Shown: positions 1,116-15,242, counted from the first letter of the stretch. The stretch: 32,000 nt of DNA from Lachnospiraceae bacterium (GCA_045576455.1 JAZNGM010000007.1:101287-133286), one strand, 5' to 3'. Numbers and translations: made by a program. Notes: generated from the sequence alone by a model not told the origin.

Positions 1116-1132
1116 AATTATGAATGTACTAT

Positions 1133-1166
1133 AAAAAGCGGGTGGCAATGTGCCATCCGCTTTTTG
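1133..1166 (+). terminator. rho-independent terminator after the aconitase gene
   Basis: AAAAAGCGGGTGGCA / TGCCATCCGCTTTTT stem (10 bp GC-rich core, one G-U pair), 3-nt loop, T-run. Confidence 0.8.
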
Positions 1167-1231: not shown

Positions 1232-1259
1232 CTAAAGTAAATGATGAATAACCCGATAT
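1232..1259 (+). promoter_or_regulatory. sigma-D / sigma-28 (FliA)-type promoter candidate
   Basis: cTAAAGTAA-N11-CCCGATAT. TAAA at 1233-1236, a 16-nt gap, then CCGATAT at 1253-1259. This matches TAAA-N15-GCCGATAT (B. subtilis sigma-D) and TAAAGTTT-N11-GCCGATAA (enteric sigma-28) apart from G->C at the first -10 position. Confidence 0.55.
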
Positions 1260-1296
1260 TGACTATAGATACTTTTGCAAAAGTAAGAAATTTAGC

Positions 1297-1324
1297 GGTC
1301 AAGATACATGGAGGTACTTGAACC
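1297..1324 (+). promoter_or_regulatory. leader hairpin with GGA in the loop (CsrA-binding-site-like)
   Basis: GGTCAAG / CTTG(A)ACC stem, 7 bp with one bulge. The 13-nt loop AUACAUGGAGGUA matches 10 of 12 positions of the CsrA SELEX consensus RUACARGGAUGU. Confidence 0.3.
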
Positions 1325-1346
1325 CTTAAAGAAAGGGGGTCAAGAC

Positions 1347-2447
1347 ATGATCATTCAATCAAGCAATCTTTCATTTAATGCAAACCGTAACTATGCACAG
1401 TCCATAACACGACGTGCTTCAGTCAGCCATTCTACAAGTATTTTTGTTGTCCCTAACGGAAAAAAGGAATTATCCGAGGTTCTTAAGGGGGAAGAAAAGG
1501 ACGCACTGTTAACACCGGTGGATGAAAAAGATAAGCAACAGGAAGACTTGTCCATGAACGATTCTTTATTTGGATTGCGTTCATCCAAAAGCTCACTCAT
1601 TACCTCTAAAGATTACAGGGATGCCATGGAAAACATCCGTAGAAGATGTATTGAATTTCTCATGAAAATATTTTACGGGAGGAAGTATGATGAAGGAAAC
1701 CCGCCCGCTGAGCAGGGCGAAGTAACCGAAGCAAGTCTTGTTAATCAGGAAAATGCAAACGGCGTATTAATGCAGCGGGTTTCGACGGAATCCGTGGTAG
1801 AGGTGTCTTATTATGAAGAAGAGACCACTTCTTTTGGTGCGTCGGGAACGGTTGTAAATGCGGATGGAACCACACTTTCCATAAACGTAGGGGTTACCAT
1901 GAGCAGGAGCCTTTCAACGTATATGAAAGAGCATAATCTCCTTGAGCAGTATACTTTTGTAGATCCGCTTGTTATTAATCTCAATACCAATATTGCGTCG
2001 TTAAGTGACCAGAAATTTGAATTTGATATTGATAATGACGGAATACTCGATACGATTTCTTCCCTTAATGAAGGAAGCGGATATCTGGCACTTGATAAAA
2101 ACGCGGATGGTGTTATTAATGACGGAACAGAATTGTTCGGCACGGATTCGGGAGATGGCTTTAAGGATTTGGCGGCATATGATGCAGACGGTAACGGATG
2201 GATAGACGAAGCCGATCCTATTTTTGAAAAGCTGCTTATATGGACCAAGGATGAATGCGGACAAGATAAGTTGTATCACCTTACGGAAAAAGGTGTGGGT
2301 GCCATATGTCTTTCAAATGCTTCGACTGATTTTTCATTAAAATCGGTAAAAGATAATGCGACAAACGGAGCAATCAGAAGTACCGGCATTTTCCTATATG
2401 AAAACGGAACAGCAGGCACGTTGCAGCATTTAGATATCGCAAAATAG
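1347..2447 (+). CDS. hypothetical protein with a flagellin-like N-terminal motif and EF-hand-like DxDxDG calcium-binding loops
   Basis: ATG 1347 is preceded by SD AAAGGGGG at 7-nt spacing, whereas the track start 1308 has no SD. N-terminus is MIIQSSNLSFNANRNY. Loops are DIDNDGILD, DKNADGVIND and DADGNGWIDEAD. No signal peptide or TM segment. Confidence 0.8.
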   Translation: MIIQSSNLSFNANRNYAQSITRRASVSHSTSIFVVPNGKKELSEVLKGEEKDALLTPVDEKDKQQEDLSMNDSLFGLRSSKSSLITSKDYRDAMENIRRRCIEFLMKIFYGRKYDEGNPPAEQGEVTEASLVNQENANGVLMQRVSTESVVEVSYYEEETTSFGASGTVVNADGTTLSINVGVTMSRSLSTYMKEHNLLEQYTFVDPLVINLNTNIASLSDQKFEFDIDNDGILDTISSLNEGSGYLALDKNADGVINDGTELFGTDSGDGFKDLAAYDADGNGWIDEADPIFEKLLIWTKDECGQDKLYHLTEKGVGAICLSNASTDFSLKSVKDNATNGAIRSTGIFLYENGTAGTLQHLDIAK

Positions 2448-15204: not shown

Positions 15205-15233
15205 ATATCGGCAATATTAGCGTTTGCCTTTAG
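15205..15233 (-). promoter_or_regulatory. sigma-D / sigma-28-type promoter candidate
   Basis: The minus strand reads CTAAAG-GCAAACGCTAATATT-GCCGATAT. The -10 GCCGATAT is perfect (15212-15205). TAAA is at 15232-15229. The spacer is 16 nt against the consensus 15. Confidence 0.5.
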
Positions 15234-15242
15234 TAATAAAGT

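Follow-up and report, generated by a model that had tools for sequence, protein, structure and literature searches.

A predicted self-processing protein behind a sigma-28-type promoter at a housekeeping locus of Lachnospiraceae

Why does a gene that lies among housekeeping and sporulation genes carry a promoter of the kind found before flagellin genes, and what might its product do? The question arises for a protein of 366 residues encoded in a 32,000-nucleotide (nt) stretch of a Lachnospiraceae genome (GCA_045576455.1, JAZNGM010000007.1:101287-133286), which as a whole is called the window here. An earlier reading made from the DNA alone (the sequence-only reading) had described a flagellar sigma-factor promoter at this gene, a CsrA-like leader and a protein that it could not place in any characterised family. 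Here, we report that the C-terminal part of the protein very likely constitutes a self-processing module (SPM). Our best explanation, to which we give a probability of about 0.55 as a whole, is that the SPM gene is a monocistronic gene of the late flagellar class that occupies a fixed housekeeping locus in Lachnospiraceae.

The coding sequence and its ribosome-binding site (RBS) are as follows.

1347..2447, plus strand: coding sequence of 366 residues plus stop, beginning MIIQSSNLSFNANRNY, placed by orthologue alignment
1332..1339, plus strand: Shine-Dalgarno (SD) sequence AAAGGGGG, separated from the ATG by 7 nt, its GGGGG invariant in the closest orthologues

Translation was assigned to ATG 1347 rather than to the in-frame ATG 1308, to which the listing of open reading frames (ORFs) extends, because the SD sequence ends 7 nt 5' of ATG 1347 and because orthologues have their first residue at the same place, in several cases straight after a stop codon. 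A genome scan found an orthologue in at least 590 species genomes, and 80 loci were kept, nearly all labelled Lachnospiraceae, with Acetatifactor, Kineothrix, Roseburia, Butyrivibrio and Eubacterium among the genus names. Protein alignments were made of 26 members and of 94 sequences, and promoter statistics were computed on 60 usable orthologue upstream regions, with random windows of the same loci as background.

The identity of the protein became apparent from its C-terminal half. Pfam and NCBIfam scans of the whole protein gave nothing significant, the local Pfam copy being one without PF26745, the SPM family; the precomputed Pfam annotation places PF26745 on all full-length relatives listed. 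A phmmer search against PDB sequences retrieved the SPM of FrpC from Neisseria meningitidis (6sjw, E = 1.6e-7), and a profile of the 26 family members matched the FrpC SPM at E = 2.7e-8. AlphaFold2, run on the 94-sequence alignment, modelled residues 207-366 with a predicted local distance difference test score (pLDDT) of ~90, and a Foldseek search of this model against the PDB gave significant matches only to 6sjx and 6sjw (E = 3.4e-10, target template-modelling (TM) score 0.69, 181/182 columns). From these sequence and model comparisons we have little doubt that residues 207-366 form an SPM domain with a functional Asp-Pro bond, for which cleavage itself is predicted. Its features are listed below.

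1965..2444, plus strand: SPM domain (PF26745), residues 207-366, recovered by phmmer, profile, Foldseek and precomputed Pfam
1962..1967, plus strand: Asp206-Pro207 (GAT CCG), predicted autocatalytic scissile bond, invariant in the 26 and in the 94 sequences
2025..2042, plus strand: EF-hand-like loop 1, D227-I-D-N-D-G232, a strict DxDxDG aligned to FrpC 'FDHNRDG'
2094..2111, plus strand: EF-hand-like loop 2, D250-K-N-A-D-G255, a DxNxDG aligned to FrpC D462-E474 'DLNGNGIIDNGAE' (site defined in PMC7078468)
2181..2216, plus strand: EF-hand-like loop 3, D279-A-D-G-N-G-W-I-D-E-A-D290, a DxDxNG (D279-G284) aligned to FrpC D499-D511
2250..2267, plus strand: degenerate fourth loop, D302-E-C-G-Q-D307, aligned to FrpC 'DLNQDG' (D521-E532), with D302, G305 and D307 at least 90% conserved

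In the profile alignment the scissile bonds are in register, the family's D-P-L-V-I-N-L facing FrpC D414-P415-L-A-L-D-L; 6sjw begins at P415 ('PLALDLD'), and 6sjx, a precursor mutant, reads D-A-L-A-L at this place ('DALALDLD', A415). The loops at D250, D279 and D302 align with calcium sites of FrpC, an extra DxDxDG lies at 227-232, and most calcium ligands are invariant in the 94 aligned sequences. W299 aligns with FrpC W519. The first FrpC site, in contrast, has changed from DLDGDG (D419-G424) to N211-L-[DN]-x-N215, which reads NLDxN here. In FrpC, Ca2+ folds the disordered module and twists the Asp-Pro amide, the Asp attacks its own carbonyl, and an isopeptide bond forms when a lysine captures the aspartyl anhydride so produced (PMC7078468). 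Because the C-terminal half is an SPM with an invariant Asp-Pro, the calcium loops are read as a self-cleavage switch, not just as the calcium-binding effector or adhesin-like domain that the sequence-only reading had seen in them. That reading had also counted three DxDxDG loops. Three EF-hand-like loops do exist, but only D227-G232 has the strict form, and the degenerate fourth had been passed over; the claim that the protein fits no characterised family has to be dropped, as the profile and Foldseek searches place its C-terminal 160 residues with the FrpC-type SPM.

The likeness to FrpC and ApxIVA comprises a module of ~160-177 residues that starts at the Pro of the Asp-Pro and carries EF-hand-like loops (E ~1e-7 to 1e-8, TM 0.69). 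Members of the FrpC/ApxIVA class are Gram-negative proteins of more than 1000 residues with RTX nonapeptide repeats and type I secretion, whereas the present protein has 366 residues and comes from Lachnospiraceae, which puts it outside that class. The Pfam scan of the protein showed no RTX-repeat family, and the neighbourhood contains no type I secretion genes. The module is internal in FrpC but lies at the very C-terminus here, where no C-terminal type I secretion signal follows it, and it is the gene described here that has a flagellar sigma-28-type promoter. The SPM domain is already known from Pfam, and what is new is its setting: a small two-domain protein of Gram-positive commensals, predicted sigma-28 control and a conserved, undescribed leader RNA.

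The promoter consists of two elements.

1233..1236, plus strand: -35 element TAAA, within CTAAAGT, of a sigma-28 (SigD/FliA)-type promoter; CnTAAAGTAT was recovered from 47 orthologue promoters
1252..1259, plus strand: sigma-28-type -10 element CCCGATAT, 15 nt after TAAA, identified by orthologue conservation and a position weight matrix (PWM)

The full string cTAAAGTAA-N11-CCCGATAT spans 1232-1259 and contains TAAA-N15-CCCGATAT exactly, so that the gene has, correctly placed upstream, a promoter of the form TAAA-N15-GCCGATAA/T that characterises the sigma-28 regulon. Among the orthologue upstream regions, CGATA[AT] occurred no more than 260 nt 5' of the start in 53 of 60 (background windows: 13.7%), and the whole motif TAAA-N14-17-CGATA in 22 of 60 (0.4%). 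When both strands of 1.03 Mb of loci were searched for TAAA-N14-16-[CGT]CGATA[AT], ~34 of the 43 matches lay directly 5' of the SPM gene. We also built a PWM from 47 orthologue promoters with the window excluded (consensus CnTAAAGTAT-N9-CnTCCGATATATAAAnTACA). Its two highest scores among all window positions on both strands were 19.5 at 15238(-) and 13.9 at 1226(+), the next-best score being 8.4 and the mean maximum in shuffles 7.0. No sigma-70-like site was found on the plus strand of the intergenic region or in two orthologue upstream regions.

For flagellin genes of Roseburia, Eubacterium rectale and Eubacterium eligens, sigma-28 promoters reading taaa-N16-ccgatat have been predicted at 47-375 bp from the start codon, and the sigma-28 consensus of Butyrivibrio fibrisolvens is TAAA / MCGATAa (PMC3720852). 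Owing to the conservation among orthologues and the form shared with these published flagellin promoters, the promoter of the SPM gene is very probably of the sigma-28 type, and dependence on sigma-28 in vivo is expected from it. The sigma-D-type site first noticed at 1232-1259 is therefore present, and it is conserved before the SPM gene across dozens of Lachnospiraceae. A second site, proposed at 15205-15233, is also real: it has the top PWM score in the window and belongs, on the minus strand, to the ORF 15137-14535.

Between promoter and start codon lies a leader with two alternative hairpins.

1260..1346, plus strand: 5' leader, its extent taken from the promoter position, with the transcription start predicted at ~1266-1269
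1297..1324, plus strand: hairpin A, GGUCAAG paired with CUUGAACC around the 13-nt loop AUACAUGGAGGUA, with GGA at 1310-1312; candidate CsrA site
1317..1344, plus strand: hairpin B, exclusive of A, in which CUUGAACCC (1317-1325) pairs with GGGUCAAG (1337-1344) in the centroid structure

The loop of hairpin A fits the CsrA consensus RUACARGGAUGU at 10 of 12 positions with its GGA inside the loop, as the sequence-only reading had noted. Since the statistics within the window are weak, support for this hairpin comes from its conservation in the closest orthologues (L209-L211, ~51% protein identity; n = 4 with the window). The last 60 leader nt of L209-L211 are 82% identical despite that protein identity. 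Across the four sequences, 89% of the cells of hairpin A pair, with one compensatory change from A-U to G-C, and the loop ACAYGGAGGUAC is invariant, so that a GGA-bearing hairpin loop is present in each of these leaders. Hairpin B, for which 94% of cells pair, would bury the Gs of the SD sequence (1335-1339). A column of the shared arm reads C instead of U in L209, where both alternative partners have likewise changed, from A to G, which preserves both helices. As the shuffle controls for the two helices were not significant with four sequences (144/500 and 115/500), a switch between A and B is only suggestive.

Orthologue leaders range from 55 to 280 nt, and most have 200-280 nt and a common plan, of which one example is given.

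L009 5801-6000: long leader upstream of the match at ~6001; also in L003, L022, L024, L035, L057, L059 and other orthologue loci

The plan opens with a 5' hairpin whose apex is an invariant GGCC. An invariant CCAnGGAyGG supplies the 5' base of a second hairpin, which has an AAGGA apical loop and a U-run after it; one clade adds a further hairpin, the third, whose loop is AGGGAA, and the SD sequence AAAGGAGG completes the plan. The second hairpin shows compensatory changes (CG 15, UA 12 and GC 1 at one pair, AU 22 and GC 6 at another), and one long leader folds with z = -4.9 relative to shuffles. GGA occurs ~7 times per leader, 1.35 times the Markov expectation, and AAAGGAGG, which contains GGA, serves as the SD sequence in most other orthologues. 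The GGA elements of the long leaders resemble the CsrA sites predicted for Clostridioides difficile fliC, BS1 TGACAAGGATGT and BS2 CTAAGGAGGG (PMC8523840). From these comparisons taken together, we conclude that the leader is a conserved regulatory RNA whose leading candidate partner is CsrA; such control would fit, and we put it slightly under an even chance. The long leader might also act as an attenuator or give rise to a short GGA-rich RNA.

Start codons also differ between the window gene, which begins with ATG, and most of its relatives: TTG (36) or GTG (11) was found in 47 of 61 orthologues, and several of these codons directly follow an in-frame stop, which forces the start. Such a bias beside the strong SD sequence AAAGGAGG is unusual and suggests tuned or regulated initiation.

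The part of the protein that the module would release belongs to a family of its own.

1347..1964, plus strand: N-domain, residues 1-206, a new family found only fused to the SPM

A profile of this domain, searched against 1.84 billion representatives, retrieved 1650 proteins (491 at E <= 1e-10), nearly all of 340-430 residues with the domain at residues 1-~200, and an indexed search likewise found it only together with the SPM. As the N-domain is never apart from the SPM, this is a fixed two-domain protein. Residues 1-206 had no significant Pfam or NCBIfam match. Conserved within them are an N-terminal strand, M-x-I-x-S-S-x-x-x-M-x-S-x-R-x-Y, with R14 invariant; a helix, I-R-x-Q-C-x-x-Y-L, with Cys101 at least 90% conserved; and, just N-terminal to the Asp-Pro, Y-Y-x-E-x-E-x-T-S-F ... 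G-T-V-x-T-A-D-G-R-E-I-x-F-x-L-x-L-x-M-S-R-S-F. In AlphaFold2 models of the full-length protein and of the N-domain alone, three strands of ~30 residues (3-36, 139-171 and 176-205), which make up an unusually long beta sheet, appear at pLDDT ~90, together with a helix at 87-110; residues ~139-205 make a long beta hairpin, and residues ~37-86 and 113-138 are modelled as disordered. Homology to MACPF/gasdermin proteins was considered and rejected: Foldseek aligned chains of the pore form with E down to 6e-5, but at TM scores of 0.1-0.28 and a root-mean-square deviation of ~40 A. These matches reflect the long beta hairpin and give a hint, from the model, that the N-domain may oligomerise. We also note, as speculation, that the Cys101 thiol could form a thioester if it lies near the nascent anhydride.

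How these parts might work together can be proposed by analogy with FrpC and ApxIVA, and for everything after transcription we lean only modestly towards the following account. Transcription would start at the sigma-28 (FliA/SigD)-type promoter late in flagellar assembly. In the leader, one hairpin would display the ACAYGGAGGUA loop and the exclusive other would sequester the RBS, and translation would probably be gated by an RNA-binding factor, the best candidate being CsrA of the FliW-CsrA-flagellin checkpoint. At low free cytoplasmic Ca2+ the SPM would be unfolded, and the protein would be exported in this state. Export out of the cell is suggested because the invariant chemistry needs Ca2+ at extracellular levels, and the most likely exit would be the flagellar type III apparatus, since the protein has no Sec signal or transmembrane segment, probably belongs to the sigma-28 regulon and varies in its first residues as flagellins do. 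Outside, the four EF-hand-like loops would bind Ca2+ and the SPM would fold, which would strain Asp206-Pro207; Asp206 would attack its own carbonyl, and the chain would be cut. The N-domain would be left with a reactive C-terminal aspartyl anhydride. This would either hydrolyse or react with a nearby amine, from a lysine or possibly from peptidoglycan, and in the second case the N-domain would become covalently linked to its target. We hold the flagellar exit itself only tentatively. The fullest version of the account, in which a flagella-exported, Ca2+-armed clip-and-link protein has its N-domain fixed to the flagellum, peptidoglycan or host mucus, or assembled into a beta-barrel-like oligomer, seems rather unlikely when taken as a whole; in it, the anhydride might possibly be relayed through Cys101.

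Covalent attachment as such is familiar from Gram-positive surface proteins, namely thioester-domain adhesins, isopeptide pilins and sortase-anchored proteins. The possible outcome is alike, a fragment covalently bound to an amine of the host or the cell wall. The chemistry here, however, would be that of an aspartyl anhydride, and the SPM protein has no LPXTG motif, signal peptide or sequence relationship to them.

Several observations weigh against the account. Within the window, TAAA-N15-SCCGATAT at up to one mismatch has a single match, for which 0.55 chance matches were expected and at least one was obtained in 39 of 100 shuffles; the match in the window alone is not significant, so that conservation is the evidence for the promoter. 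No flagellar, fliA or csrA genes were found in the window or within 6-10 kb of any orthologue, the window also has no chemotaxis genes, and the flagellin signature RIN.A.DDAAG did not occur in the 1.09 Mb of loci scanned; in these loci the gene does lie away from flagellar genes, as had been stated from the window. In FrpC, D478 and the W451/W519 pair lie near the cleavage site (PMC7078468); in the module described here, T266 stands opposite D478, and no residue corresponds to W451. The exchange D579A abolishes cleavage of FrpC (PMC7078468); an invariant D363 stands here at the offset expected for D579, and the C-terminal 74 residues alone do not match FrpC by sequence.

The leader contributes further points of this kind. 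The window contains 14 matches to RUACARGGAUGU of 10/12 quality where 8.6 were expected, which is not significant, and the window leader folds no better than shuffles (z = -1.6). With no GGA in its SD sequence, the window leader lacks the second CsrA site of the classic arrangement. The invariant GGA of the long leaders sits in a stem instead of a loop, and the invariant GGCC loop, for which CsrA has no need, is unexplained by a simple CsrA model. Rfam holds no family matching the window or seven orthologue loci, and a permissive scan of one long leader returned noise. Finally, a metagenome scan was made with the motif GACCANGGAYGGTATTT: among the 120 matches listed, the genuine ones all precede the SPM gene and never a flagellin gene, and most are chance matches in unrelated coding DNA that reveal no further regulon members.

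Several of these observations would suit a leader that is not a CsrA target, which we regard as a serious possibility, though well short of an even chance. It would be a self-contained or otherwise controlled switch, working by competition between A and B in the window and by attenuation through the hairpin and U-run in most orthologues; another protein, a small molecule or temperature would act as its trigger. The exclusive hairpins that share one arm and co-vary, the z-score of the long leader and the compensatory hairpin followed by a U-run all fit this picture. On the other hand, the excess of GGA and its place in the apical loops (AAGGA, AGGGAA and that of the window) speak for CsrA, as does the resemblance to the C. 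difficile sites; csrA belongs to motility loci of Lachnospiraceae and was found in the flgM-csrA locus of all six genomes studied (PMC3720852). In addition, the hairpin of the long leaders goes unflagged in a simple terminator scan, and calling it terminator-like is a reading of the branched stem plus U-run.

The N-terminus is where the flagellar exit has to be judged. No signal peptide or transmembrane segment was found, the maximum Kyte-Doolittle mean over 19 residues being 0.73, which bears out what had been predicted. The N-terminus MIIQSSNLSFNANR resembles the Lachnospiraceae flagellin start MVVQHNMTAMNANR; the first four residues in the family are MKIN, MRIN, MVVN and MIIQ, compared with MKIN, MRIN, MVVN and MVVQ in these flagellins (PMC3720852), and a hydrophobic residue 10 and Arg14 are likewise shared. 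The likeness, however, is confined to residues 1-16, Flagellin_N does not match, no flagellin Pfam family was found at E up to 1, and RIN.A.DDAAG is absent from the protein. Moreover, in the AlphaFold2 model the flagellin-like residues form a structural beta strand whose conserved face alternates S6, I8, M10, S12, R14 and Y16. Of the flagellin-like start that the sequence-only reading had pointed out, the first 16 residues hold, and flagellin domains are lacking, consistent with its remark that the rest of D0/D1 is absent. Such a likeness agrees with a shared export signal without being evidence that one exists.

Compared with the flagellin genes under SigD and FliW-CsrA (hag of Bacillus subtilis, fliC of C. 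difficile and of Roseburia/Eubacterium), the SPM gene shares TAAA-N15/16-CCGATAT and a long leader (PMC3720852), GGA motifs that occur in the leader and also, for most orthologues, at the SD sequence, and a protein start of M-[KRVI]-[IV]-[NQD]. It differs in that its product lacks Flagellin_N and Flagellin_C, its leader motif is gene-specific, it stands outside motility loci, and CsrA binding is a prediction. Non-flagellar proteins known to leave through the flagellar type III apparatus are FlgM and, in Campylobacter, FlaC, Cia and FspA. The SPM protein resembles them in having no Sec signal, in its late-class expression and in the need to be exported unfolded, whereas it has no homology to them, none of them contains a self-cleaving module, and its export is predicted.

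The same Ca2+-triggered Asp-Pro clip-and-link reaction could instead follow a non-flagellar exit, through lysis, a holin-like route or an unrecognised system, with sigma-28 setting only the timing; autolysins of B. subtilis, for instance, are sigma-D-dependent. The short reach of the flagellin likeness and the structural strand would be explained in this way, and so would the position of the gene, which is never near flagellar genes and always beside spoIID-like and M23 cell-wall genes. We nevertheless consider it improbable, as there is no signal peptide or transmembrane segment, the conserved neighbourhood contains no genes of other secretion systems, the first four residues vary as in Lachnospiraceae flagellins, and an unfolded Ca2+-dependent domain suits a narrow channel (PMC7078468).

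Less probable still is an intracellular, Ca2+-responsive regulator of motility, one that a rise in Ca2+ would inactivate through self-cleavage or that never cleaves in vivo. Late flagellar regulons do include cytoplasmic regulators, the protein has no known export signal, and the conserved helix with Cys101 in the N-domain might belong to such a function. The SPMs studied, however, need ~millimolar Ca2+ and act after secretion (PMC7078468; PMC12538545), and the invariance of the Asp-Pro and calcium ligands in the 94 sequences argues for real cleavage, which cytoplasmic free Ca2+ would not support.

Last, the conserved adjacency to spoIID-like and M23 genes, which is a further point against a flagellar role, allows a cell-wall or sporulation link instead, yet we think it very improbable that the protein works with the SpoIID-like lytic transglycosylase and the M23 peptidase, drawing Ca2+ perhaps from spore Ca-dipicolinate, and that the motif is incidental or serves another sigma factor: the conserved gene order and the lack of a strong terminator 3' of the gene would fit, but CCGATAT with TAAA 15-16 nt upstream is a sigma-28 signature specific to the SPM gene and not its neighbours, the gap to spoIID measures 54-346 nt, and a second orphan gene has the same type of promoter.

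The published view confines the SPM exclusively to Gram-negative RTX proteins (PMC7078468), and a later engineering survey covered Neisseriaceae only (PMC12538545); our literature search found no paper that links the SPM with flagella or Gram-positive bacteria or that names PF26745. That view is contradicted by a large, uniform family of small SPM proteins from gut and rumen Lachnospiraceae, for which at least 590 species genomes and, at 50% identity, at least 1650 clusters were counted. Clip-and-link by an SPM is a rare chemistry, studied only in a few toxins of Neisseriaceae and Pasteurellaceae. It has already been turned into the protein-ligation tool NeissLock, and the family offers compact natural variants for engineering. 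If the proposal is true, no earlier SPM would be known outside Gram-negative RTX toxins and type I secretion, and covalent-attachment chemistry would for the first time be tied to a flagellar regulon, in abundant gut commensals; the leader would be an undescribed sigma-28-driven regulatory RNA. It also raises the idea that flagellated commensals, whose flagellins are major immune antigens, release a self-attaching covalent protein as well. In these bacteria the flagellar regulon has received little study; the SPM gene and the ORF 15137-14535, both unannotated, join it as probable members, together with a conserved leader RNA.

The second of these members is located as follows.

15137-14535, minus strand: second orphan sigma-28-type gene, with a promoter at 15205-15232 (TAAA-N16-GCCGATAT) ~60 nt upstream

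It encodes 200 residues starting MSVNGINNVSAADLYSTYG, with no Pfam match and more than 2000 homologues, all of them Lachnospiraceae 'hypothetical proteins' of ~195-215 residues. All 4 homologue loci inspected have CGATA[AT] at a distance of 52-93 nt upstream and a conserved SD context, CCAAGGAGGG. The ispE-like gene on the plus strand had been a possible target of the promoter at 15205-15233, but the minus-strand reading, in which it serves this ORF, rules that out. About 4 kb from one homologue, we found a dCache-HAMP-MCPsignal chemoreceptor gene (L208 1-1083), the sole chemotaxis-related gene among the loci examined. The second sigma-28-type gene and this gene for a methyl-accepting chemotaxis protein indirectly favour a motile host, and the literature on related genera (PMC3720852) is further indirect evidence for flagella and fliA; a search of the literature on Acetatifactor motility found nothing usable.

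The unit of the SPM gene is bounded on its 5' side by the end of the preceding gene.

1132..1166, plus strand: intrinsic-terminator-like hairpin at the end of the upstream aconitase-family gene, a stem of 16 pairs with a T-run after it, which sets the 5' limit of the unit

The aconitase-family ORF occupies 39-1115 (matches to Aconitase and Aconitase_C), and 3' of the SPM gene come a SpoIID-like gene, an M23 peptidase gene, a CelD_N/GH9-like gene, ddl and murF. This order was kept in all loci examined, and the remainder of the window consists of housekeeping and sporulation genes. If the SpoIID-like ORF starts at ATG 2502 (MKKVQV...), only 54 nt (2448-2501) separate it from the SPM gene, and no terminator-like site was found in this spacer. 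The spacer contains CATACTAT (2477-2484), which resembles a sigma-E-type -10 element; spoIID would then probably have its own sporulation promoter. At one orthologue locus (L081 5536-9939, L082 87-3457), a Tn916-like module (Xis, integrase) stands upstream of the SPM gene in place of the aconitase gene; after it come an extracytoplasmic-function (ECF)-type sigma factor and a 395-residue protein of unknown family, and the synteny downstream is intact.

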